Source: an uncultured Gammaproteobacteria bacterium (lineage in GTDB: Bacteria > Patescibacteriota > Patescibacteriia > UBA1558 > GWA2-36-10). Taken from it: a stretch of DNA of 64,000 bases. The stretch covers positions 4,121-68,120 of the forward strand of contig CAZWYP010000005.1 in NCBI GenBank assembly GCA_964638415.1. Reading direction: 5' to 3'. This document shows, piece by piece, positions 3,659 to 59,910 of this stretch. The position numbers and the translations under genes were made by a program. Below the pieces are notes generated by a model that did no database searches, was not told the DNA's origin, and saw nothing but the letters and a program-made list of their open reading frames with translations. Within the stretch, counting starts at the first letter, position 1; each line of letters begins with the position of its first letter.

Positions 3659-4393
3659 ATGGAAAAAAATATTAAAATTAAAATTTCAAAAAAACTATCA
3701 ATATACGGAAAGTTTAATGGATCATACAAACAACCTCTCTTTATAATTATCCACGGCTTAACTGGTAATATGGATGAGGAACTTTACCAATCAGCAACTC
3801 ACTGGTTTAGAAAAAATGGTTTTTCAACATTCCGCTTTAATTTATACTCCTACCAAAAAGATGCTAGGCAACTTATGAATTGCACTCTAAAAACCCACAG
3901 TAAAGATTTAGATAAGATAGTCAATTATTTTAAAAATAAGGGTGTACAAAATATATTTATCGCCGGACATAGTTTTGGTGGTCCAGTAATATTAGGCTCA
4001 AAAAAACAAAACTTCAATGCCGCCGTACTTTGGGATCCGACTTACAAAATATCTTTCATAAAAAAAGCTTATGGATTTCCAAAAGGAAAATATGTCAAGG
4101 AATTAAAAGCGTATATTACGAAATGGGGAGTTAATTTTGTTATAAGCAGAGCAATGGCAAAAGAAGTAGAGTCTTTTCCTCAGTCTTTAGCAGTAAAAGA
4201 ATTTAATATTCCCTTTCAAATAATCCTAGCCGGCGCTGGTGTACTACATCAGGCTAAAAAATATCTAAGGGGTGTAAAAGTTGAACATGATTTAATAATT
4301 ATAAAAAACGCGACTCATTATTTTAATGATACAAAAGATATGCGTAAAAAAGTTTTTAGATACTCAATGGAATGGTTTAAAAAATTTATGTGA
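3659..4393 (+). CDS. alpha/beta hydrolase (dienelactone hydrolase/esterase-like)
   Basis: IIIHGLTGN oxyanion region and IAGHSFGG nucleophile elbow. Confidence 0.65.
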   Translation: MEKNIKIKISKKLSIYGKFNGSYKQPLFIIIHGLTGNMDEELYQSATHWFRKNGFSTFRFNLYSYQKDARQLMNCTLKTHSKDLDKIVNYFKNKGVQNIFIAGHSFGGPVILGSKKQNFNAAVLWDPTYKISFIKKAYGFPKGKYVKELKAYITKWGVNFVISRAMAKEVESFPQSLAVKEFNIPFQIILAGAGVLHQAKKYLRGVKVEHDLIIIKNATHYFNDTKDMRKKVFRYSMEWFKKFM

Positions 4394-48550: not shown

Positions 48551-49024
48551 TTAATCTATTCTTCCTGAAGATAATATTTGTAAAGACTGGTTAACTTCTG
48601 AATTCTGGTCATAAATCATCTGCACTGTGCCGGTATTGTAGGTCTGGCCGGTGAATTTAATAAACACTACATCACTGCCCAAACCGCCAACGCCGTCGGA
48701 TACAGTGGTGCTGGCATTTAAAATCTCAATACCAGATAACTCTTTAATAATATTTAGGGGATCTTCTTCGTTATAGAAACTTCCAGAAAACAAAACATAA
48801 CGCTTGTCTTCCAAGTGCACTCCCCAGTTATTATTATTAGCCGCTGCGGTAGCCAATTGCTGTGCTCTTAACAAAGTGCTTTTTAACTCTTCTTTACCGT
48901 TAATTAACAATACATGGTGCCGCCAATTAATATATCCAGTAACGCCAATGGAAAAAACAATGGCCACAATTGCCAATACCATAGTTATTTCCACTAAAGT
49001 TACTCCTCCTTGGGATTTAATCAT
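48551..49024 (-). CDS. GspH/FimT-like minor pseudopilin
   Basis: MIKSQGG|VTLVEITMVLAIVAIV prepilin-type N-terminus (Val at +1, Glu at +5); 157 aa. Confidence 0.5.
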   Translation of the reverse strand: MIKSQGGVTLVEITMVLAIVAIVFSIGVTGYINWRHHVLLINGKEELKSTLLRAQQLATAAANNNNWGVHLEDKRYVLFSGSFYNEEDPLNIIKELSGIEILNASTTVSDGVGGLGSDVVFIKFTGQTYNTGTVQMIYDQNSEVNQSLQILSSGRID

Positions 49025-50266
49025 TTAATAAACTCCATAACTATTAGTCAGCTCATACATTGGACTAATCACCGACAGGGCAATAAAAGCTACAGCTACA
49101 CCAACTAGAATCAATAAGACCGGCTCCAAAATGGTAGATAGATTATTCAATACATTATTGACCCGCTCTTCATAAAATTCAGCTAGCTTGGTGAGAATAT
49201 TCTCCAATTCTCCGGTACTTTCCCCTACTTGTACTAATTGCACTGCCAGCGAAGGAAAAAGATCTGACCTTTCCCGCATAGCTTTTTCCAAGGATACTCC
49301 TTTTTGCAATTCTTCAGACATCGCTAAAGTCTGTTTGCGAAATTTTAAATTGCTTAAGGTTTTAGCCACAATATCCAGAGCCTGGACAATAGATAGTCCT
49401 GAAGCTAATAAAGCATGTAAATTACCGGAAAATCTGGTTAAAGATAGTTCTTTGACAATCTTACCGACAAAAGGCAATTTAAGCCAAAGCCAGCTTAAAA
49501 AATACTTGGGCTTAGGAAATTTAAAAATTATCCTCAAGGCGATGATTAAGATGATTAATGATCCTAAAGTATACCAACCATAAGTGGTCAGTAATGCATT
49601 CAACTGGTTAACAACCACTAAAATAATCGGCAATTTTACGCCAGCATCATTAAATAATCCTATTAACTGAGGGAATACCGACAAGGCTAAAAACAAGCTC
49701 ACACCAACTAAAGCAATTAAGACAATTACCGGGTACATCAAAGCACCAAAAACTTTGCTTTTTAATTTGCGTTGGGCTTTTAAAATAGCTGCTAAATTTC
49801 CGGCCGCTTCCGACAATTTACCGCTCTTTTCCCCTACTTCAATAGTAGCGATAATCATCTGGTTAAAAACTTTGGGATATTGCTCCATGCCCCTAGATAA
49901 TAATTGGCCATTCTCTACATATCTTTCCAAAAAATCAATAACATTAGAAAAATATTTATTCTTAATTTCTTTTTTCATGGTACTCAAAGCTGGAGTTAAA
50001 GATAACCCAGCTTTCAGCATGGTAGATAAATTGTCCAGAAATAAAATCTTTTCAGTGGCTTTAACACCACCCAAGGCTAACTTAGCTTTCAGTTTATTAA
50101 CCTTAGTCTTCTCCGGCAAAATCGGCTGAGCATCTTTTATTGGCTGCTGTCTGTTGGGACGATACAACTTAAAAGATGTCATTTGCTTTCTATTGGAAGA
50201 TAAAGTTATTGTCGGCTTAGCACTTGGGTCATCATAACTTTCATTCCTGCCTCCTAAATACTCCAT
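49025..50266 (-). CDS. pilC: type IV pilus assembly platform protein PilC (GspF family)
   Basis: Two GspF-type cytoplasmic repeats and three TM segments; conserved ...GESTGEL... motif. Confidence 0.85.
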   Translation of the reverse strand: MEYLGGRNESYDDPSAKPTITLSSNRKQMTSFKLYRPNRQQPIKDAQPILPEKTKVNKLKAKLALGGVKATEKILFLDNLSTMLKAGLSLTPALSTMKKEIKNKYFSNVIDFLERYVENGQLLSRGMEQYPKVFNQMIIATIEVGEKSGKLSEAAGNLAAILKAQRKLKSKVFGALMYPVIVLIALVGVSLFLALSVFPQLIGLFNDAGVKLPIILVVVNQLNALLTTYGWYTLGSLIILIIALRIIFKFPKPKYFLSWLWLKLPFVGKIVKELSLTRFSGNLHALLASGLSIVQALDIVAKTLSNLKFRKQTLAMSEELQKGVSLEKAMRERSDLFPSLAVQLVQVGESTGELENILTKLAEFYEERVNNVLNNLSTILEPVLLILVGVAVAFIALSVISPMYELTNSYGVY

Positions 50267-50267
50267 T

Positions 50268-51998
50268 TTATTCCCGCTTAATTCTCAGAACTTCTTCAAT
50301 CGTCGTTACTCCTAATAAAGCTTTCTGCATGCCATCTTCAAAAATGGTCACCATGCCCTGCTCTACCGCTGCTTTTTCTATCTCATTGGAAGAAGCATTT
50401 TTAATGATGCAATTCTGCACTGGCTCAGTATTTTCCATGATTTCAAAAACCGAAGTACGGCCGGCGTAACCGGAATTATGACAGCGTTCACAGCCCTTTC
50501 CCCGATAAAAAGTCAGTTCAGAGAATGAATTTACTTCTTGCTTGACTACTCCTAATTGCTTAAACCTATTAAGCATGTCATTGAGATTAAACTCCTTGCT
50601 TAAGCTCACTAATTGCTGCTCATTTAGATGGAAGCTTTCAATGCAGTCTAAGCAAATTTTCCTGACCAAACGCTGGGCAATTACCACATTCAAAGTACTA
50701 GCTACCAAAAACGGCTCAACTTCCATGTCCAATAATCGCGGGGGTGCGCCGGTAGCATTGTTGGTATGCAAAGTAGATAAAACCAAATGTCCAGTCAAAC
50801 CGGCCCGGACGGCAATCTGAGCAGTCTCTTTATCTCTAATTTCTCCAATCATAATAATATCCGGATCCTGGCGCAATAAAGATCTTAAACCAGTAGCAAA
50901 GTCGTAACCGGCTTTGACATTAACCTGAGTCTGGTTAATCCGACTAATACCGTATTCAATGGGATCCTCAATAGTAGAAATATTAACATCCTCAGTATTT
51001 AAAACATTTAAAATGGCGTACAAAGTGGTAGTCTTGCCAGAACCGGTCGGACCAGTGACTAAAATCATGCCAAAAGGCTTATCCAACTGACGCTTCATCA
51101 TCTCCATATTGCTGTCGGTAAAACCCAGATCTTCCAAAGTTAAATCATGCGATTCATCGGTCATTAAACGCATTACCACTTTCTCACCGTAAAAAGCCGG
51201 AATAACGGAAACACGAACCGATTCTTCTTCCCCCTCTATTTTAAAAGAAAATCTACCGTCTTGCGGTACGCGGTGCTCATCAATGCGTAGATTGGATAAA
51301 ATCTTAATTCTTGCCACTAAAGCATCATGAATCTCCAAGGGTAATTCCACCTTGTCATGCAAATCGCCGTCAATGCGGAATCTAACCACCACAGCATCCG
51401 GCAAAGCCTCCATGTGGATATCTGAAGCTAATTCAAAAACCGCTGCTTCTAGAATAGCATCCACAATCTTAATCACCGGCAATTCAATATCTACTGACTC
51501 CCCTTTTTCTTTGAGGATTTTATCGTTAATAATATTACTAAGCTCTTCCTTAATATCTTTTTCATAAAGATGGGCGCCGTAAATAAAATTCTTGTAGCTA
51601 GTGAGGAATATTTTTATTTTCTTACTAGTGGTTTTTTTAACCAAATCAACTTTAGTCACGCTTTTAGGACTAACAAAAGCTACAGACAAGGTGTTGCCAT
51701 CCAGCTCAAAAGGTATAGCCTGGGCTTCTCTGACTATTTTTTCCGGCAATTCATTCAATACTTCCGGCTTTAATTTACGCTTGCGTAAATTAACATAAGC
51801 AAATCCTAACTTATCCCCGATTAACTCATACAAGTATCGGTTATTAAAAAAACCCCGCTCAATCAAAATCTCTTCCACCCCCCGGCGGCGGCGATGAGCA
51901 TTCTCCGCTGCCTCTACCCAGTCTTTTTCCTTAATAACCTGAGTACTTAACAACAGCTGTTTTAACTCGTCTTGAGATATTGGTAATTTAGAAGGCAT
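50268..51998 (-). CDS. pilB: type IV pilus assembly ATPase PilB (GspE family)
   Basis: GSPII_E N-domain; Walker A GPTGSGKTTT, Asp box, His box, Walker B, and a C-terminal tetracysteine CLDC...CERC. Confidence 0.9.
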   Translation of the reverse strand: MPSKLPISQDELKQLLLSTQVIKEKDWVEAAENAHRRRRGVEEILIERGFFNNRYLYELIGDKLGFAYVNLRKRKLKPEVLNELPEKIVREAQAIPFELDGNTLSVAFVSPKSVTKVDLVKKTTSKKIKIFLTSYKNFIYGAHLYEKDIKEELSNIINDKILKEKGESVDIELPVIKIVDAILEAAVFELASDIHMEALPDAVVVRFRIDGDLHDKVELPLEIHDALVARIKILSNLRIDEHRVPQDGRFSFKIEGEEESVRVSVIPAFYGEKVVMRLMTDESHDLTLEDLGFTDSNMEMMKRQLDKPFGMILVTGPTGSGKTTTLYAILNVLNTEDVNISTIEDPIEYGISRINQTQVNVKAGYDFATGLRSLLRQDPDIIMIGEIRDKETAQIAVRAGLTGHLVLSTLHTNNATGAPPRLLDMEVEPFLVASTLNVVIAQRLVRKICLDCIESFHLNEQQLVSLSKEFNLNDMLNRFKQLGVVKQEVNSFSELTFYRGKGCERCHNSGYAGRTSVFEIMENTEPVQNCIIKNASSNEIEKAAVEQGMVTIFEDGMQKALLGVTTIEEVLRIKRE

Positions 51999-52543: not shown

Positions 52544-53458
52544 TTAATTAGCTGTAAAATAAGCGCTTAAATAACTAGTAGTCTGATTTAAATCCGCTTT
52601 AAGTATTTTAGCAGAATTACTATGCTCAATAATCTGCAAATCCTGAGCTTGGCTTAACTCCATAATCTTTAGTAAAGCATTGAGCGAATCCGGAGAATCC
52701 AGATAGTCGCTGTTTAAATTACTAAGCAGTTGGTAGTCCTTGTTTTTAATCGCCGACAAGGTAATTTGATCATTCCTCTCCGCTTGCGACAAAGGCAGAT
52801 AATGGGATAGATCCAATGAATTAATCACTACCGTTCTCTCGTCAAGCCAAGGCAAAATTGCTGCCGCTAAAGAAAAAGATTTATCATTGGTCTGATGGGA
52901 AGTGAAAATAATCGGCGCTACTTTAGCTTGAGGAAAGTACTGCTTAATAAAAGGCAATAACACTGCTACTGAATGTTCTGGCTTAAAGTTGTCCAGATCA
53001 TAAGCAATAAAATCATCTTTAACCAACTGATCTAAAATTTCCTGATCCTGCTTAACTTCTCCTAAAAAAGTCTGCCAATTAACCGCAGCGGAAATAGCTG
53101 GTGCTTTTGCTAAATCCCGATGATTAGGGGCTAAAATAACAAAAGTATCTACTATCTGATTTTTAGATAAGGAAAGGAAAAAATCTGCCAGCAAATCACT
53201 GGCCAAATCATGGTGCGGCAAAATTGCCCCCATTACCCGTTGGCCATTATGGATATATTTTTCTCCCGCTTGAGCAAGAGACTGGTCAAATAAATAATTA
53301 TTGGTCTCAACTGTAATTACTGGGTAGCTTTCCTGACTAATACTGGTAAACGACTGGGTTTCCACTGACTTAAACATGGTGTAAATTAAAACCAGTCCAA
53401 CCGCTAAAATAATAGCGGCATTGAGTTTAAAAATGTGTCGGCTAAACCAATTCTTCAT
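52544..53458 (-). CDS. MEMO1-family (AmmeMemoRadiSam system protein B-like) protein with an N-terminal membrane anchor
   Basis: GAILPHHDLASDLLA, VILAPNHRDL, NSLDLSHY and IEHSNS match the MEMO1 pattern (IiPHAGy.ySG / iLgPsH / sSDLSHy / H). N-terminal TM helix. Its start overlaps the stop of the A2M-like gene by 1 nt. Confidence 0.5.
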   Translation of the reverse strand: MKNWFSRHIFKLNAAIILAVGLVLIYTMFKSVETQSFTSISQESYPVITVETNNYLFDQSLAQAGEKYIHNGQRVMGAILPHHDLASDLLADFFLSLSKNQIVDTFVILAPNHRDLAKAPAISAAVNWQTFLGEVKQDQEILDQLVKDDFIAYDLDNFKPEHSVAVLLPFIKQYFPQAKVAPIIFTSHQTNDKSFSLAAAILPWLDERTVVINSLDLSHYLPLSQAERNDQITLSAIKNKDYQLLSNLNSDYLDSPDSLNALLKIMELSQAQDLQIIEHSNSAKILKADLNQTTSYLSAYFTAN

Positions 53459-56400
53459 TATGGTTGAATGGTTACTTGCTGGCTATCGGCAAAATTCATA
53501 ATCTCCGGGACATTAAATGATTGGATGATAATCGGCTCAGCTTGGTAAGTCCCTGGATTGGTAATGCGGGCATAATAACTAAAGTAATCCTTTGCGCAGC
53601 GGGACTGTTTCCAATCTTTGCTGATACTGAACTTAACTTGCTGCCCCTCAATCTCATAAGGATAGTAATATCCGCAATCTACATAAGCCCCGCGATAATA
53701 CGGACGAGTAGTAACTTTCAAGCCGCTGGGCAGCAAGTCAATAATCTGGTATCTGCCCTGCAAAGCGCTGCTGGAAATAAAAGGATAAACCCTAACTTCT
53801 ACCAAATCACTTTCTTTAAAGCTACTAGTCTCTACGTCATTGACATAATATTTTCTGGCAATAGCGATATTGCGATCAACTGTCGCATCGCTAGCAGCTA
53901 ATGGTTTTTCGTAAGTACTTACCAAGCCAACTTCTCCCTCAATATTGCTGAATTTAATACTAGCTAATTCCTGAGGACTTACTTTAATTCTCCAGCTCCG
54001 GCCTTTATCTAAAGTCTGCTGATGCTCCTGCTCACCTACTTTAACCGTAAATTTAACTTCTCCTTCTCCTAAATTGGGCAGAGTATTAGCCACATAATGC
54101 AATTTTTCCAGATTAATCAATACCTCTTTAGTGCGGTTTTCTACAGTATACTGCCATAATGGCTCATGCAGTTTGTCATTCAAGCCACCGGCTAGAATTG
54201 CCGCTAAAGCAGTGACAGATAAAATATCGTCCATATCGCCGCCAGTATTTATTCGGGCATATTGCTCGCCATAATTTTCCCCATGTTTTTCTATTAACTC
54301 TAAATAAATACTCTTAGCCAGCTGATTATCCCCTAAACTCTGGGCACCTAAGGCAATATATAATTTCTCTTTAATGGTTAAATCCGGCAAAGCGGCAAAT
54401 TGCTGAAGAACCAAGAGAATCGGCTCATCTAAAGCTGCTAAGCCGGCCAGAGACATCACTACCTCTTCCTGGTTGGAATCCTCATTGTTCAACTTGCCGT
54501 AAAAATAATTAGCTAAACTAGTTTGATCAAATTTATCAGCGGCCACCATTGCTGTTCTGACGCTTAATTCCATTTCCGGATCGCTGTAAGGCAATAACGT
54601 GATGCCGCCGTTGTATTGGTATAATGATCCTTCAAATTCCGGCACATAAGTTTGGTCAGAAAAATAATCTTTAATCAACTGACTGCCAATAACTCTAGAG
54701 AACTTCTGATCAACCCGATCACCATAAGCCCAGGCTAAATGGGTTAAATAGCGATATAGGCGGCCGCGATTGCGATCAGAAAAAGTCAAAGTAGTAGCTG
54801 AATCCGAACTGCCTTTCACCTGCAACTCTGGAGATAAAATATAGTTTTCCTCCACTAATTTGCGCAAATGGGAATTAGTAACTAGAATCGGCAAATTAAC
54901 CGCATCCTGATATTCTCCAAATTCCACCCCATAGGTAAGATCATATTCTCCTAAAGACAATTGCGGTATATTAATATAACTTGGCTCGAAGGCCTTGCCG
55001 TCAACCGTAGTTTTATCCAAGCCTAAAGTGGCAGCGTCCAGACTAAATCTGACCTGATCGCCATTACGCAAGGCATCACCATAAGCCCGCAATTTAACCG
55101 TCGGCTGGTCAGCTGCCAGATACTCTTTAGCAAAGGTCCCTTCAACAAAAACCGGCAAGCTAACCATAATCTTACTGACTCCATCACCAGCATATAGATC
55201 TTTGGTAATTGCCTGGGCGGTTATCCTCCAGGAAGTAATATTATCCGGCACGGTAAAATTAACTGTCGCTTGTCCATTGCCGTCGGTAATCACTGAGGCA
55301 AATAAGGCATTGTCGGTAAAGTTGTCTCTAACTCCGCCACTTTTTTGGTTATGGACGTAAATACCGTCCGCTAAATAAGTATGATAATGCTTGGTCTGTA
55401 AATTATATACCTCCGCCACCTCTTCTGACTGCTCGATGCTGAAAATCTTAACTGGCTGACCATGATCATTCATCAGCCAATCGCCTACCGCTGCTTGGCC
55501 GATTGGCTGCCACTTATTATTCAATAATACTATATGCTCTGGCGTCACCTTCAATTGGTTGTTGATTATCAGATAACCGGAAACAACATGATAAAAGGTT
55601 TTTTCTACTTCTGTCGCCACTAATTTTCTTTCAAAGGGTGAAACAAAAGTCATTATCTGTTCACCAACAGCGATATCTTCAATATTCTTGGTAGAGCCAT
55701 CTGCCATAGTCACTTTAGTGCCAGCCAAGAAACAGCCACCTCCTTCCGCGCCCAAGCCAAAGTCTGCTAATGCTTCCAAACTTTCTGCCTTATTAGTGCG
55801 ATAAGAAGTAATTTCTCCTGAAGAGATATAGCCATTGTATAAGGTTTCCAAAGGATTAACATCGCCACCGTAACTGATATCATAATAGGCTTCATCTACT
55901 AAATTAACGTTAACACCAGCCGCTACCGGATTATTATTAAGATCGCTGACTTTAACCTGTAAGGTAACTTCTTCACCGGGCTTAAATTCTTCCTTATTAG
56001 CTTCTACTTCCACTTTTAACTCACGGTCGGAATATTTAAATTTAACAGCCGTACCGCCACTACCACCCCACCACCAATAATTTCCCTGGCTGCCGTCATG
56101 ATAAGACCGGCCATCAAACCAAACGCCTTTAACATAAACCACGGGTACATACTGAGCAGTAAAATCAAAACTGAATTCCGGCGCATTACTTAAACTATAA
56201 TCCAACAATCCTTGCTTGAGCTTGAAATACAAGTAATTTTTCTGATCGGATGTGGGTAATAATTCATCATTCTTCAAGAATTCGAATTCTACTGCTTCGC
56301 CTATAGAAAATTGCGAATTATCCCGTTTATCCTGGCTTTTCAACCTCAGCTGATAATAATCATAGCTGCCGCGGGAATCATAGCTACTGTTATAATAATA

Positions 56401-58875
56401 ACTGGTTAAATAATCATTCCTGCCCTGACCGTCGGAAACAATCACGTCTACCCGATAGCTTTTATCTTTCTCCACACTTAACCGATAACGATGCTCTCCC
56501 TGCTGATTGGAACTGCCGCTATAGGTGGTTAATTGCTTTTCTATGCGGTCATAGCGGTACTTCTTTCTAACTACTTTATTGATAAAATCATAATATTCCC
56601 CATCTTCTTTAGCCTCATAGCTAATTTCGGTAATCTTAGCAGAAATGGCTTTATTGACTGCCGGATCCCCTAAATAATCCTGGTAACCAGTAGCTTCCCC
56701 ATTATTAATTTTATCCAAATCAACATTATTCACCTTAGTTAAGATATCTACTGACACTGCACGACCAGCACTGTCTTCTTCATTCTCAAATTTAATCTGA
56801 CCAGCTATTTTAGGACCAAAAACTCTAACAGAAGCATAGGCGCTAATATCTGCCTCTTCGGATTTTACTGGATTAACATTAATGGAATAATATTGCGGAT
56901 AATCGCAGCCATAATAATCTCCGCTCTGCGGACAATCCTGGTATTGCGTTGGCAAGCTTAAATGCCCATTGCCAAAAATATCCGTCTTCAACTGGCCCTC
57001 TGGCTGTTCACTAGCCTGATACTTCAATTCTAAATTAGCTACCGGCGTTCCTTCAAAAAAATTAGCCTTAACATCTACCTTTACATCTTCACCGGCAAAT
57101 AAAGCGTTTTTCTCCGGCTTAGCTTCTATTTGGTAAGCTGGCTTAACATAGCGCTCTACTGTTAAATAATGAGTGCCAATTACTTCTTCTCCCAATAAAA
57201 TCTCCATACTATACCAGCCTGGCTCAACATTCTTAAGATCCAAACTACCGGAAAAAGTATTAGCTTCAGTTAATATTACCTGCGCTTGGGCGGTGGAAAT
57301 TCTTTCTAGATAATAATTATAATAGCTCTGGCCGTTAATTAACTTCACTGTCAATTCTTGGCCGGCGTTTATTTCTCCTGCTCGCGGCTTAACAAAGCCC
57401 CAAAAATTAACTTTATCGGTTGGCTGGTACATCGTTCGGTCGGTATAGAAATAAAACCAGTTATCCGGCCGAGTATAATCGTCCATTTGGAAAGAGACTG
57501 CCACTACATTAGTATAGCCGCCGCCGGTGATTTTAAGAAAATGGTAATTCCTTGACCAATCCTCATTTTGGTCAAAACCGGCGGCAGTATTCATAGTTGC
57601 CAAACCGTCATTGTTGGTATTCTGGATAATGCCTTTATCTACTGAGGTAACCTGCGCTTCGGCTATTGGTCCACCAGTATCCAGACTATTTACCCAGATC
57701 AAGGTATTGTTGGTGGTAATATCGGCATAGATTGCCAAATTATTTACCTGGAAAAAAGCCTGGCTGACAAAATCATCATACTTCATTTCAATCAGATAAA
57801 AACCATTGGGTAAAGTCTCGGGTAAAACCAGATATTTAGCATATTCATATTCTACCATCGGCAGATTATGCTCGCCTACCTTGGTTAAAGACTGCGGATT
57901 GTAATAGTAATTATCCCGGTGGTACCTGGCCCAATACGGCCATCTCTCTTTATCTTTAGCCGCTTCAATATACTGGTCAGCGCTGGCAAAAGCATAGACT
58001 GTTACCGGTACATTCTTGGATTCTTGGTTGTAATAGGCAGTTAAAGGAAATAGCGGCGGAGTATCCAAGGAAAATTCACTGAAACTCTCAGCAAAACCTA
58101 CCCGCCTATAATTACCCTGGCCATCTTCCGTATTAGCCGGCTCCGTCTCAAACCTAAAGATATGATCATTATTAAGCTTCAAATCACTGCCCTCTAAAGC
58201 AATACTTTTGTCCACCGTAACCTGGTAAATAGTGCCGTTTTGCAAACCGCCGCTGGGAACAAAAACCAAGGTTCTTTTATGCTTTTCATAACGCCCCTCT
58301 ATTGCCGGCTCAATTTTAATCTTGCCTTCGTAGTCAATAAAATTCTCATGGCTGAAAGTAATTTCAATACCGGTATTAACCGGCACATAAGAGCCTTTGT
58401 CTCTGGGTAGAGTGTTTAAAATCTTAAATTGATCCTTAACCTGAAAAGCCCAGGAATAATTGTATTTCTGCTCCTCACCCGCTTCATCCAGATAATTGGA
58501 GGTAATCTTCACCCGGTAAACTTTCTTTTGCTCCAAGGGATTTTTAGGAACTACTTCAAACTTATTCTGGTCAATGGTTTTAAAGTCAAAGTCAACTGTG
58601 GGCTCCAGGCTAATGTTAGAAGCTAATGCCTGAGGGTCCACCACATCCTTACTGGTAATAATAAAGGAGGTGGTATCTTCTACTCCAATACTGTCTGCTT
58701 TGGTAGGAATAATCTCAAAATTATCCTGAGCAAAAGCGGAGTTAATAAATAATTTAGTAAAATTGCGGGTATCCACTAAGCCCTGATCTTTAGGCCAAAG
58801 ATAAAAATAACCGGCTAATATTGCCACAATTAAAAAAATAGCAATAACGGGCACCCAGATTTTTGCTTTAAACAT
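53458..58875 (-). CDS. alpha-2-macroglobulin-family large surface protein (thioester-less) with an embedded Hint/BIL domain
   Basis: N-terminal TM anchor. Multiple Ig/MG-like beta domains. NFTVPDNITSWRITAQAIT...SLPVFVEGTFAKEYLAADQPTVKLRAYG aligns with the A2M/C3 MG6 signature ([10 protein letters not shown]...FFVELTMPYSVIRGE / DSITTWEIL). Helical TED-like C-terminal region without a CxEQ thioester. Confidence 0.6.
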   Translation of the reverse strand: MFKAKIWVPVIAIFLIVAILAGYFYLWPKDQGLVDTRNFTKLFINSAFAQDNFEIIPTKADSIGVEDTTSFIITSKDVVDPQALASNISLEPTVDFDFKTIDQNKFEVVPKNPLEQKKVYRVKITSNYLDEAGEEQKYNYSWAFQVKDQFKILNTLPRDKGSYVPVNTGIEITFSHENFIDYEGKIKIEPAIEGRYEKHKRTLVFVPSGGLQNGTIYQVTVDKSIALEGSDLKLNNDHIFRFETEPANTEDGQGNYRRVGFAESFSEFSLDTPPLFPLTAYYNQESKNVPVTVYAFASADQYIEAAKDKERWPYWARYHRDNYYYNPQSLTKVGEHNLPMVEYEYAKYLVLPETLPNGFYLIEMKYDDFVSQAFFQVNNLAIYADITTNNTLIWVNSLDTGGPIAEAQVTSVDKGIIQNTNNDGLATMNTAAGFDQNEDWSRNYHFLKITGGGYTNVVAVSFQMDDYTRPDNWFYFYTDRTMYQPTDKVNFWGFVKPRAGEINAGQELTVKLINGQSYYNYYLERISTAQAQVILTEANTFSGSLDLKNVEPGWYSMEILLGEEVIGTHYLTVERYVKPAYQIEAKPEKNALFAGEDVKVDVKANFFEGTPVANLELKYQASEQPEGQLKTDIFGNGHLSLPTQYQDCPQSGDYYGCDYPQYYSINVNPVKSEEADISAYASVRVFGPKIAGQIKFENEEDSAGRAVSVDILTKVNNVDLDKINNGEATGYQDYLGDPAVNKAISAKITEISYEAKEDGEYYDFINKVVRKKYRYDRIEKQLTTYSGSSNQQGEHRYRLSVEKDKSYRVDVIVSDGQGRNDYLTSYYYNSSYDSRGSYDYYQLRLKSQDKRDNSQFSIGEAVEFEFLKNDELLPTSDQKNYLYFKLKQGLLDYSLSNAPEFSFDFTAQYVPVVYVKGVWFDGRSYHDGSQGNYWWWGGSGGTAVKFKYSDRELKVEVEANKEEFKPGEEVTLQVKVSDLNNNPVAAGVNVNLVDEAYYDISYGGDVNPLETLYNGYISSGEITSYRTNKAESLEALADFGLGAEGGGCFLAGTKVTMADGSTKNIEDIAVGEQIMTFVSPFERKLVATEVEKTFYHVVSGYLIINNQLKVTPEHIVLLNNKWQPIGQAAVGDWLMNDHGQPVKIFSIEQSEEVAEVYNLQTKHYHTYLADGIYVHNQKSGGVRDNFTDNALFASVITDGNGQATVNFTVPDNITSWRITAQAITKDLYAGDGVSKIMVSLPVFVEGTFAKEYLAADQPTVKLRAYGDALRNGDQVRFSLDAATLGLDKTTVDGKAFEPSYINIPQLSLGEYDLTYGVEFGEYQDAVNLPILVTNSHLRKLVEENYILSPELQVKGSSDSATTLTFSDRNRGRLYRYLTHLAWAYGDRVDQKFSRVIGSQLIKDYFSDQTYVPEFEGSLYQYNGGITLLPYSDPEMELSVRTAMVAADKFDQTSLANYFYGKLNNEDSNQEEVVMSLAGLAALDEPILLVLQQFAALPDLTIKEKLYIALGAQSLGDNQLAKSIYLELIEKHGENYGEQYARINTGGDMDDILSVTALAAILAGGLNDKLHEPLWQYTVENRTKEVLINLEKLHYVANTLPNLGEGEVKFTVKVGEQEHQQTLDKGRSWRIKVSPQELASIKFSNIEGEVGLVSTYEKPLAASDATVDRNIAIARKYYVNDVETSSFKESDLVEVRVYPFISSSALQGRYQIIDLLPSGLKVTTRPYYRGAYVDCGYYYPYEIEGQQVKFSISKDWKQSRCAKDYFSYYARITNPGTYQAEPIIIQSFNVPEIMNFADSQQVTIQP
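55348..55734 (-). other. Hint (mini-intein-like / bacterial intein-like, BIL type A) domain, 129 aa, residues 1048-1176 of the A2M-like protein
   Basis: Intein block A CFLAGTKVTMADGS (Cys1 after GGG), block B LKVTPEHIVL (TxxH), blocks F/G VYNLQTKHYHTYLADGIYVHN ending in His-Asn. The +1 residue is Gln (HN|QKSGG), so canonical splicing is not possible. Confidence 0.65.
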
Positions 58876-58939
58876 ATTTTTTTGGTTAATAAATACGAGA
58901 TTATTATACCATAAAAACTAACTTTTTTTAACTTTAATA

Positions 58940-58974
58940 AAATGAAAAGCCGACCAAATTAAATTTGATCGGCT
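58940..58974 (-). terminator. Terminator downstream of pyrD (agccgatcaaatt aaa tttggtcggct followed by a U-run on the minus strand)
   Basis: Hairpin with one mismatch, followed by a T-rich run in minus-strand sense. A TATAAT box for the A2M-like gene lies just beyond. Confidence 0.4.
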
Positions 58975-58980
58975 CTTGAC

Positions 58981-59910
58981 TTATTGACTCCGAATGAGGA
59001 TATCAGTCCACTCGCTTAAAATACGAGTAAAAACTTTTGGCCCTTCCCTCAGTAAAGACGTAGCTATCTGCACGGCAGTAGCGCCTGCTCGCTGGAAATC
59101 AACTACATCCTGACCGGTGCTAATTCCACCGACACCAATGACACTAATCTGGTCAGTCAAAGCTTGTCGCCACTGATAAACTTGTCCCAAAGCAAAAGGC
59201 TTAATAGCCGAACCTGACAAGCCAGCTAGGCCATTAGCAACGGATATTACTGTCCGACCATCAGGAGAAAAACTCAAACAATTAGGAACGGTATTAATCA
59301 CCGTTACAAAATTTATCAATTCATTGCTATTTAACAAATCAGCAAATGATTTGATTTCTAAGGGATTAGTGATTGGCGAGACTTTAACTCCTATGAGCGT
59401 CTTCTTCGCCTGTAATGCAGGCAGCGTCCACAATCTGTCTAAAATTCGCTTAACATATGGGCGATTGAAACAAGCAATACCGTGTTGTCGGCCGTTATCC
59501 AAAACATTGGGACAACTGAGATTAATTTCCATGCCGTCAACTTTGCAAGCAGCAATGTGATTAACGAGGCGCCAATAATCATCCTCGCAAAAACCAGCCA
59601 CGCTAACAAATATTTTCTTACCCCTCGCCCCAGCTTGGTCAACCAAATTCTTTAAACATGATTCATAATAGCGTAATCCTGGATTAGGTAATCCCAAGGA
59701 ATTAAGAGCGAAGCCATCACTCTGATGATAAACATCGCCTTCATTACCTAATCTCCTCTCAACCGTAATTGATCCAATCATGACAGCGCTGGCGCTAGAT
59801 TGCAATAAATCTGAAAAATTCAAATCTCCTTCAACTTTCTTGCAAGTGCCGGCTGCATTCATCACTGGATGTTCTAATTCCATTCCCGATAAATCAACAG
59901 AAAAATCCAT
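58981..59910 (-). CDS. pyrD: dihydroorotate dehydrogenase (class 1)
   Basis: N-terminal NPVMNAAG, catalytic Cys region (NLSCPN), FMN-binding GGI.TG. ATG at 59910 with an AAAGGAGG RBS is preferred over the 59967 start. Confidence 0.8.
   Translation of the reverse strand: MDFSVDLSGMELEHPVMNAAGTCKKVEGDLNFSDLLQSSASAVMIGSITVERRLGNEGDVYHQSDGFALNSLGLPNPGLRYYESCLKNLVDQAGARGKKIFVSVAGFCEDDYWRLVNHIAACKVDGMEINLSCPNVLDNGRQHGIACFNRPYVKRILDRLWTLPALQAKKTLIGVKVSPITNPLEIKSFADLLNSNELINFVTVINTVPNCLSFSPDGRTVISVANGLAGLSGSAIKPFALGQVYQWRQALTDQISVIGVGGISTGQDVVDFQRAGATAVQIATSLLREGPKVFTRILSEWTDILIRSQ

Follow-up and report, generated by a model that had tools for sequence, protein, structure and literature searches.

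The 64,000-nucleotide stretch of contig CAZWYP010000005.1 analysed here (positions 4,121 to 68,120; the window) carries on its minus strand a gene for a membrane-anchored protein of the alpha-2-macroglobulin (A2M) family, with a 129-residue Hint domain of the bacterial intein-like (BIL) kind inserted in the loop equivalent to the protease bait region. The gene, an open reading frame (ORF) at 53458..58875 including the stop codon, starts with ATG and encodes a protein of 1805 residues, of which an identical copy (P0001) exists in public data. It is best read as a thioester-less, type-II-like bacterial A2M, held by an N-terminal transmembrane (TM) helix at the cytoplasmic membrane's outer face in a bacterium of the Patescibacteria (candidate phyla radiation, CPR) type. 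Both parts are of known kinds, a type II-like A2M and a type-A BIL; what appears new is their combination at a mechanistically decisive site. We tentatively propose, at somewhat under an even chance, that the Hint domain excises itself after export by a mostly hydrolytic resolution and leaves the protein nicked into two chains that remain associated. In the literature searched, which did not cover subscription-only papers, nothing was found that connects macroglobulins with Hint, BIL or intein domains, and to that extent the original prediction that the architecture is undescribed holds. The same literature is likewise silent on the phylum-wide conservation of Hint macroglobulins and on their thioester-bearing forms. 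Databases name the homologues by two Pfam domains side by side, or as 'polymorphic toxin-type HINT domain-containing', 'Ig-like domain-containing' or 'hypothetical'.

A Hint domain within a macroglobulin fold

Pfam profiles match the 1805-residue protein well above chance, with A2M_BRD at residues 852-999 (E 6.5e-10), A2M at 1191-1247 (E 1.1e-7) and further matches to Big_5 (149-244), bMG3 (378-447), MG2 (474-547) and MG3. A single-sequence phmmer search of Protein Data Bank (PDB) sequences matched the Hint domain and not the macroglobulin, which needed profiles. Two AlphaFold2 models, both computed from a 72-sequence alignment, cover residues 1-1060 (predicted local distance difference test, pLDDT, 85; predicted template modelling score, pTM, 0.73) and 606-1805 (pLDDT 86, pTM 0.70). 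Together they run, from the N- to the C-terminus, through a TM helix, a long beta-sandwich array, the Hint domain between low-confidence linkers (about 23 disordered residues upstream, 1025-1047, and 1177-1180 downstream), beta domains, a 12-helix domain resembling a thioester domain (TED) and further beta domains. In Foldseek searches of the PDB, the model of residues 606-1805 matched ECAM of Escherichia coli (E 1e-41) and Salmonella A2M (4e-39), together with A2ML1, CD109, C4, C5 and TEP1, all between 1e-41 and 1e-31. These models and matches indicate that the protein is a bona fide macroglobulin-fold protein without a thioester, and they agree with the earlier identification of a membrane-anchored A2M-family member, which also draws on the two A2M-type Pfam matches and the TM helix at residues 8-25. 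The model of residues 606-1805 lies closer to protease-activated ECAM (4ZIQ, TM-score 0.50) and activated CD109 (0.41) than to native ECAM (5A42, 0.25); this activated-like conformation may be a modelling artefact and is not used as evidence.

Among the features of the A2M, complement and thioester-containing protein superfamily, the macroglobulin (MG) beta-sandwich array and the bait-split MG domain are present, the helical thioester-type domain (an alpha/alpha toroid) is present in the predicted structure, and CxEQ is absent. A search for C.EQ across the whole protein found none, and there are only five cysteines (648, 657, 1048, 1734 and 1760). The sequence G-D-R-V-D-Q at residues 1385-1390 lies roughly where relatives carry G-C-x-E-Q and may be the equivalent of the thioester site, a purely positional correspondence, because BLASTP returned no alignment between the TED-like region and that of a thioester-bearing relative. 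About 20 residues past the membrane helix, most family members carry a strongly conserved A-[YF]-A-Q-D-N-F motif; the copy in the window protein (NSAFAQDNF, residues 45-52, approximately 58720-58743, minus strand) resembles an AxA signal-peptidase site, unusually far from the hydrophobic segment.

All of the motifs quoted in the original prediction were found where it placed them, in an ORF on the minus strand: CFLAGTKVTMADGS (block A; residues 1048-1061, nucleotides 55693-55734), TPEH (block B; 1111-1114), HTYLADGIYVHN (1165-1176, nucleotides 55348-55383), ALFASVITDGNGQ (1190-1202) and NITSWRITAQAIT (1212-1224). The Hint domain begins with Cys1048 (nucleotides 55732-55734) and ends with Asn1176 (55348-55350), with Thr1111 and His1114 in block B and His1175-Asn1176 in block G. 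Two Pfam families, Hom_end_hint (6.6e-9) and PT-HINT (1.4e-6), exceed their gathering scores on it, Vint and Intein_splicing also match, and NCBIfam recognizes the intein C-terminal splicing motif (intein_Cterm). The domain aligns from its first to its last residue with the 139-residue Mtu RecA mini-intein (1-139). A profile of the Hint compared with solved structures scored best with BIL2 (6Y75/6TMM, 1e-18) and the Clostridium thermocellum BIL (2LWY, 8e-18), and true inteins scored lower. Type-A BILs combine Cys1 and His-Asn with the lack of a nucleophile at +1 (PMC4031507); the domain here likewise has the Hint fold, its blocks A, B, F and G, Cys1 and His-Asn, and at +1 Gln1177 in place of Cys, Ser or Thr. 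The 129 residues contain no homing endonuclease domain. The earlier assignment to the BIL kind is thus borne out by Pfam and NCBIfam, the mini-intein alignment and the ranking of structures.

Conservation was assessed among relatives from a word-index search, which returned 256; 119 of the best 120 exceed 1500 residues, 88 with and 31 without the Hint, and these form the base of the counts of 88 and 31 below. Cys1, the His of block B and the C-terminal His-Asn pair are invariant (88/88), and the block-B Thr is Thr in 86 and Ser in two, so the blocks, for which degeneracy had been raised as a possibility, are intact. Residue -1 is Gly in 83 of the 88, and Ala-Glu stands at -5/-4 in 83-85; the resulting Gly/Cys-Phe cleavage site resembles that of Hedgehog (G/CF; slashes mark junctions). 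At +1, 87 homologues have Asp, Glu, Gln, Asn, Ala or Ile and one has Thr. A lysine follows next to +1, or past a further short insertion, in every Hint-bearing homologue (Lys1178 in the window protein); the 31 Hint-less loops compared lack a junction-proximal lysine. The Hint measures 129 residues in 139 of 150 proteins. Its hosts are secreted and fast-evolving (36% mean identity), with a fixed insertion site and conserved flanks (AE-GGG before it, x-K-GG..R after it). We consider the Hint domain complete, type-A BIL-like and, judging by its invariant catalytic residues, apparently active; the conservation pattern indicates that it is under purifying selection at both junctions.

The Hint lies between the A2M_BRD and A2M matches. 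The linker ahead of it forms the N-terminal part of the bait-equivalent loop, ends in a conserved AE-G-G-G before Cys1 and aligns by profile with the ECAM bait segment LAALRFGGDGDE; a profile of the 31 Hint-less relatives aligns their loop consensus, ...ypeae..GGAEkGGEGGgeR.dFrD, with ECAM ...VIEGQGRLAALRFGGDGDELKRGGKPPVNHV. In ECAM, Arg923-Leu942 are disordered after elastase cleavage and Arg956 lies in the cleaved bait (PMC4498604), and these residue numbers identify the aligned segment as the ECAM bait region. At its other end the Hint stops six residues before Arg1183 of an RxxFxD motif that matches the post-bait RK[YH]FPETWIW of human A2M and CD109. In a 268-position profile the post-loop R-x-D-F-x-D motif aligns with 'VRKHFPETWIW' of CD109 (CD109 663-842) and with human A2M precursor 729-812, directly past the bait, the post-loop block with C5 784-937 and the pre-loop block with the C5 beta-chain 551-608; profiles also align the pre-loop block with ECAM ~815-935. 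By this three-way alignment (CD109, human A2M and C5) the Hint-bearing loop is the counterpart of the C3/C4/C5 chain-processing site and the anaphylatoxin-domain position, which upholds the earlier placement of the Hint at the bait region. Both flanks are assigned to one MG domain by homology to ECAM, C5 and A2M, not from measured contacts.

The suggestion that the Hint stands in place of a bait does not hold. With the Hint subtracted, the loop from Tyr1013 to Arg1183 measures 35.9 ± 2.7 residues in the 88 Hint-bearing proteins, against 35.0 ± 2.5 in the 31 Hint-less ones, and by this comparison the Hint is a clean 129-residue addition within a short Gly-rich loop. The Hint-less loops are short, conserved and Gly-rich (AEGGGGGGGR, GAE[CQHK]GGEGG.ER, or as many as a dozen or so Gly in a row), and the loop predicted for a spliced window protein, AEGGG-QKSGGVR, is much like AEGGGGGGGR. 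At the equivalent of residues 1040-1183 of the window protein, P0089, P0091, P0095, P0099, P0106, P0108, P0110 and other Hint-less proteins have the conserved loop as GGAE[CQHK]GGEGG.ER or as such a Gly run, and several Hint-less relatives have a Cys three residues ahead of the point at which the Patescibacteria carry the insertion. A conserved poly-Gly 'bait', unlike the hypervariable classical baits, could mean that a dedicated enzyme processes the loop or that glycyl-glycine endopeptidases are its targets.

Distribution and descent of the Hint-bearing macroglobulins

In a scan with one genome per species, at least 585 loci were found and the presence of the Hint was scored in the best 80. 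It is present in 30 of them; together with its occurrence in 88 of the 119 long relatives, this answers the earlier call for the same insertion in other genomes. Among the 30 Hint-bearing genomes, 25 are labelled as Patescibacteria/CPR lineages or as unclassified 'bacterium' (CPR labels of Hint-bearing records include Parcu-, Peregrini-, Peri-, Falkow-, Uhr-, Kerfeld-, Morani-, Collier-, Doudna- and Saccharibacteria) and five carry Proteobacteria labels. The Hint-less members of the best 80 include all those from Firmicutes and Chloroflexi and six from CPR. Five Hint-bearing loci (L012, L017, L018, L022 and L030) carry automatic metagenome-bin labels of 'uncultured Gammaproteobacteria/Pseudomonadales' and resemble Patescibacteria loci in their macroglobulin-Memo pair, extracytoplasmic function (ECF) sigma gene and G+C content (GC) of 37-46%; these labels are probably wrong.

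An exhaustive HMMER search with the Hint and its short flanks as query returned 9325 Hint relatives, 196 of them at E ≤ 1e-30. The top 150 contain 133 new representatives, of which 69 are macroglobulins that carry the Hint in the bait-equivalent loop, and the Hint-bearing family exceeds 150 sequence clusters. Mean pairwise identity is 48% within the Hint against 36% outside it, and the one rises and falls with the other (r = 0.78). With GC at 40.6% in the Hint and 41.0% in the gene, and with the co-divergence of Hint and host, a recent horizontal acquisition of the Hint was rejected. In a neighbour-joining tree of the hosts without the Hint, Hint-less members fall inside Hint-bearing groups on at least four occasions (P0065 next to P0050 is one) and also form one large clade. 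A neighbour-joining tree of the 129 Hint residues groups the macroglobulin Hints apart from those of tandem-Hint proteins; computed without support values, it cannot separate one ancient insertion from later transfers between thioester-bearing and thioester-less paralogues. Our reading of these comparisons is that a BIL was captured once into the macroglobulin bait loop, then descended for the most part vertically and was cleanly lost several times, and that paralogues may have exchanged it.

The nearest relatives of the Hint outside macroglobulins are secreted proteins with two to about ten tandem Hints joined by VHN-K-GGGG-CF linkers (P0121, P0123, P0124, P0125, P0126, P0128 and P0130). Their VHN-K junctions make the junction-proximal lysine a trait of this Hint subfamily, and the Gly-rich flanks and the lysine past His-Asn may belong to the mobile Hint cassette itself.

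At least 18 of the 69 Hint macroglobulins from the HMMER search have an intact GC[VTMI]EQ about 187 residues past PDNLTSW (P0156, P0166, P0168, P0172, P0188, P0198, P0199, P0214, P0233, P0238, P0240, P0242, P0244, P0246, P0248, P0251, P0252 and P0253). The absence of CxEQ noted in the original prediction therefore holds for the window protein but does not characterize the architecture. By a crude hydrophobicity scan, at least three of the 18 (P0198, P0214 and P0233) have a C-terminal membrane anchor and no N-terminal one. Junctions in the thioester-bearing subfamily match those of the window protein's family (AE.GG/CF ... VHN/[DQES]K..R..F.D); between it and the thioester-less subfamily the flanks are 19% identical and the Hints 45%. 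A self-cutting bait combined with a live thioester would be the most provocative form of the architecture.

Self-excision, religation and other readings

In the sequence of events that we propose, the Hint would fold once the protein has been exported by Sec, Cys1048 would perform an N-S acyl shift at the Gly1047-Cys1048 bond, and cyclization of Asn1176 would cut the Asn1176-Gln1177 bond. With no Cys, Ser or Thr at +1 the thioester would mostly be hydrolysed, freeing the Hint and leaving two chains, residues 1-1047 (still membrane-anchored) and residues 1177-1805, which would remain associated because both contribute to the same MG domain. The cell would thereby nick its own bait loop without a protease, comparable to the furin processing of C3, C4 and C5 or to the cleavage of MagD in vivo; the nick would mature or pre-trigger the macroglobulin conformational switch, and the nicked module would work with a conserved Memo-like partner. 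Cleavage is favoured over canonical splicing by the residues at +1 in 87 of the 88 homologues and by nearest solved relatives that are BILs. Hydrolytic nicking in turn is favoured because cleavage products dominate in characterized type-A BILs (PMC4031507; PMC7664689) and because MagD, which is found cleaved in vivo, remains assembled after bait cleavage, its fragments staying associated (PMC5764988). A conserved Gly-rich loop, unlike a hypervariable or broad-spectrum bait, also fits a dedicated processing site and so favours nicking.

Several points weigh against hydrolytic nicking. Sequence alone does not separate cleavage from ligation, the mechanism being deduced from Hint chemistry, and the shared MG domain of the two flanks rests on homology and not on contacts. 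The nested Hint-less forms, with a loop otherwise unchanged, are most easily explained if removal of the Hint changes little, that is, if the mature products are equivalent and hence ligated. In the relatives that keep an intact GCxEQ, constitutive nicking of the bait would be expected to discharge the thioester prematurely. By analogy with Tetrahymena BIL2, which uses the side chain of a lysine for ligation and so makes an isopeptide bond (PMC8616854), the invariant junction lysine could act as a ligation nucleophile.

These points lead to a reading that we hold to be a serious possibility, in which the Hint is a benign intein-like passenger that is excised, its flanks religated into a continuous Gly-rich loop, with no role in macroglobulin function; religation is nearly as likely as the nicked two-chain outcome. 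The Gly1047 thioester could be attacked by the alpha-amine of the +1 residue, as in type-A BILs, or by the epsilon-amine of Lys1178, giving an isopeptide. It had been argued that Gln at +1 precludes canonical splicing; a +1 nucleophile is indeed missing, but 'cannot' is too strong, since type-A BILs are able to splice without one by aminolysis (PMC4031507) and BIL2, the best profile match among solved structures, takes the lysine route (PMC8616854). The lysine after His-Asn is as typical of the tandem-Hint relatives as it is invariant here, and the predicted spliced loop is closely similar to the Hint-less ones. Several clean losses of the Hint also fit a passenger, as does the presence of its lineage at this position in macroglobulins that bear a thioester and need their bait intact, and invariant catalytic residues are expected of any intein obliged to leave its host. 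The dominance of cleavage in BIL experiments speaks for nicking instead. A useless element in a disordered, length-tolerant loop should moreover decay or be deleted, but this one persists in hosts diverged to about 30% identity, is more conserved than they are, and has no homing endonuclease to account for its spread.

Self-cleavage need not be constitutive. The Hint may be a built-in, protease-independent trigger at the site that controls the macroglobulin and complement switch, with self-cleavage conditional on contact, metal, pH or a nucleophile firing that switch. Relatives with GCxEQ would then expose their thioester for covalent attachment to a host cell or other surface, relatives linked to sigma factor genes (see below) would signal across the membrane like self-cleaving anti-sigma factors, and the window protein would mature a Memo-associated surface complex. 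We regard this extension as unlikely.

Still less probable is a Hint-mediated covalent transfer, in which an external nucleophile (a lipid, the cell wall, a partner protein or a host-surface amine) would resolve the Gly1047 thioester and the N-terminal fragment of 1047 residues would become joined to a target, in the way that cholesterol is attached to Hedgehog, or substrate lysines to the ubiquitin-like domains of BUBL proteins. BIL2 does conjugate its N-extein to other proteins (PMC8616854). The Gly-Gly/Cys-Phe site with its prevalent Gly at -1 is Hedgehog-like, but the Hint is followed by no adduct-recognition region, His-Asn leading directly into an MG domain, and the reaction has no need of a strictly conserved C-terminal His-Asn. 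A life attached to host cells is generally attributed to Patescibacteria, which speaks for such a transfer; the N-terminal fragment is anchored in the membrane already, which speaks against it.

A catalytically silent Hint, serving as a folded 'plug' or decoy that leaves the loop only through cleavage of the linkers by a foreign protease, as a convertase releases the C3 anaphylatoxin, would occupy the same topological position as the anaphylatoxin domains of C3, C4 and C5 and would have the required flexible linker on either side. We consider it highly improbable, since the catalytic residues of both junctions are retained in 86-88 of 88 proteins while the flanks have diverged to about 30% identity, and a structural plug needs none of them. 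A polymorphic-toxin-type protein with a PT-HINT releasing a C-terminal toxin, as the Pfam match and NCBI homologue names such as 'polymorphic toxin-type HINT domain-containing protein' would have it, is essentially refuted and was rejected, because the 629 residues past the Hint are MG, TED-like and C-terminal MG domains with no toxin, the conserved downstream gene is Memo-like and not a variable immunity gene, and Hint-less orthologues share the same C-terminal part.

In all macroglobulins and complement proteins known so far, control is exerted by a proteolytic cut at the bait or processing site, and it is always another enzyme that makes it. If hydrolytic nicking is correct, a family with its own cutting device at the bait site would represent a new way to arm, mature or fire an ancient fold, and would give structural biologists a protease-free handle for triggering the native-to-activated transition. 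For intein biology, BIL lineages bound to one fixed site in one host family and co-evolving with it are rare, and this one represents either domestication or an unusually faithful passenger; the invariant junction lysine offers an opening to test lysine-mediated (isopeptide) ligation in bacteria.

Gene neighbourhood and comparison with known systems

The features of the protein and its coupled neighbour are collected in Table 1. The Memo-like gene shares a TAATG stop/start overlap with the macroglobulin gene, in agreement with the translational coupling claimed earlier, and in 60 of 86 related loci, among them loci of Firmicutes, Chloroflexi and Patescibacteria, the gene directly downstream encodes a Memo homologue. 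Gene order thus indicates a conserved two-gene module, translationally coupled here. We know of no described functional link between the Memo family and macroglobulins.

Table 1. Features of the Hint-bearing macroglobulin gene and the adjoining Memo-like gene (window coordinates).
Feature	Position	Strand	Evidence
Gene for membrane-anchored A2M-like protein with internal Hint	53458..58875	minus	ORF; Pfam; AlphaFold2 and Foldseek
N-terminal TM helix/signal anchor, residues 8-25	58801..58854	minus	Hydrophobic IWVPVIAIFLIVAILAGYFYLW; AlphaFold2 helix 8-25, then disorder 26-37
Extracytoplasmic beta-sandwich array, residues 40-1024	55804..58758	minus	Two Big_5 Ig-like, then MG-type domains (Pfam); all-beta AlphaFold2 model, pLDDT 85
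First part of bait-bearing MG domain, A2M_BRD, residues 852-999	55879-56322	minus	End of the beta array; Pfam
Disordered pre-Hint linker, residues 1025-1047, ...AESLEALADFGLGAEGGG	55735..55803	minus	pLDDT <50 at model residues 420-442
Hint/type-A BIL-like domain, residues 1048-1176 (129 residues)	55348..55734	minus	Pfam; NCBIfam; profile; mini-intein alignment
Post-Hint linker QKSGGV, residues 1177-1182	55330..55347	minus	+1 Gln, Lys1178; pLDDT <50 at model residues 572-575
Second half of bait-bearing MG domain and next beta domains, residues 1183-1369	54769..55329	minus	Starts R1183-x-x-F-x-D, contains PDNITSW; Pfam A2M 1191-1247
TED-like alpha/alpha toroid without thioester, residues 1370-1601	54073..54768	minus	12 helices in AlphaFold2; Foldseek full-length; no C.EQ
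C-terminal beta domains, equivalent to C-terminal MG domains of bacterial A2Ms, residues 1602-1805	53461..54072	minus	Profile against ECAM 1361-1609 and Salmonella A2M 1439-1640; AlphaFold2 strands
Memo-like membrane-anchored protein, 304 residues	52544..53458	minus	Pfam Memo, E 6e-31; TAATG stop/start overlap with macroglobulin gene

Of the 86 loci, 21 have an ECF sigma-70 gene immediately upstream of the macroglobulin gene (L002, L003, L005, L013, L015, L021, L023, L026, L028, L030-L033, L039, L043, L044, L053, L055, L060, L064 and L075), and it overlaps the macroglobulin start in L002, L003 and L005, the three inspected loci with called genes. The sigma-linked homologues inspected, these three included, have a cytoplasmic extension of 70-100 residues ahead of the membrane helix, in which Pfam found no domain. 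Gene order, gene overlap and membrane topology, the only basis here, suggest that many family members double as anti-sigma-like sensors; the window protein has neither the sigma gene nor the extension. The envelope module of ECF sigma factor, membrane-anchored macroglobulin and Memo-like protein, found in Firmicutes, Chloroflexi and Patescibacteria, is conserved and uncharacterized.

In the window the macroglobulin gene is preceded by a DHODH gene and followed by Memo-like, TspO and type IV pilus genes. The adjacency of TspO stands as an observation on the window but is incidental, as TspO, DHODH, Lgt, DsbA, Rce1-like and pilus genes were not conserved partners in the related loci inspected. 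The type IV pilus-like cluster downstream of Memo and TspO (48551-51998, minus strand, and onwards; locus L001 8068-14896) encodes a T2SSE ATPase, a T2SSF platform protein, proteins with the prepilin-type N-methylation motif and a PA14-domain protein, and is not kept beside the macroglobulin elsewhere. Past the DHODH gene, 58880-58985 (minus strand) holds a terminator-like G+C-rich hairpin with a T-run (gagccgatcaaatttaatttggtcggcttttcatttt), and a TATAAT box lies at 58903-58908, about 30 nucleotides ahead of the macroglobulin ATG. The macroglobulin and Memo-like genes, possibly with TspO, are probably transcribed as a unit of their own. Apart from a trivial hit to the N-terminal part of the Hint, PADLOC found no match to a defence system.

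Among known systems, the window protein resembles the type II bacterial A2Ms (MagD of Pseudomonas aeruginosa, YfaS) in its multi-MG fold, bait-bearing MG domain, TED-like helices and C-terminal MG domain, as well as in lacking CxEQ, retaining a bait-equivalent loop, associating with the cytoplasmic membrane and having partner genes. Type II bacterial A2Ms such as MagD likewise have no thioester (PMC5764988). The differences are that the loop here is short, Gly-rich and conserved, and Hint-bearing in Patescibacteria, and that in place of the mag operon with its six genes (MagA-F) the partner is Memo-like, often with an ECF sigma gene upstream. The family occurs in Patescibacteria, Firmicutes and Chloroflexi, groups that are generally taken to have a single membrane, and is anchored through a TM helix at the N-terminus. 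Type I A2Ms (ECAM/YfhM and Salmonella A2M) are the best structural matches, and the Hint-bearing loop aligns with the ECAM bait; unlike the window protein, ECAM has a CLEQ thioester, a bait of about 40 residues for foreign proteases, a lipoprotein anchor, PBP1c as partner and no Hint.

As a Hint, the domain is closest to the type-A BILs (Clostridium thermocellum, 2LWY; PT-HINT), sharing a mini-Hint of about 130 residues, Cys1, TxxH, His-Asn, a non-nucleophilic +1 residue and a secreted host. Type-A BILs have been described in hypervariable regions of non-conserved proteins, whereas here one fixed site in one family is occupied across a phylum, with Hint and host diverging together. Tetrahymena thermophila BIL2 (BUBL locus, 6Y75/6TMM) is the best profile match, and the lysine in its C-terminal flank that forms the isopeptide recalls the invariant junction lysine here; BIL2 is nevertheless eukaryotic and cytoplasmic with ubiquitin-like flanks, and lysine ligation in Hint macroglobulins is a hypothesis only. 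The Hog domain of Hedgehog shares the Hint fold and the Gly/Cys-Phe site and self-cleaves extracytoplasmically through a thioester, as is predicted here; it lacks a C-terminal His-Asn and has a sterol-recognition region, whereas the window Hint has an invariant His-Asn and is followed by an MG domain after six residues. In contrast to a canonical class 1 intein, there is no Cys, Ser or Thr at +1 and no endonuclease, the site is disordered and Gly-rich, and Hint and host divergence are correlated (r 0.78). Unlike PT-HINT toxin systems, with their variable C-terminal toxin and immunity gene, the Hint macroglobulins have macroglobulin domains and a Memo-like gene. Finally, complement C3, C4 and C5 carry an extra globular domain at the same topological site, within a split MG6-type domain, with a chain scission that is known in complement and predicted here. 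In complement the insert is a helical anaphylatoxin and the cuts are made by furin and the convertases, whereas in the Hint macroglobulins the insert would itself be the cutting device.

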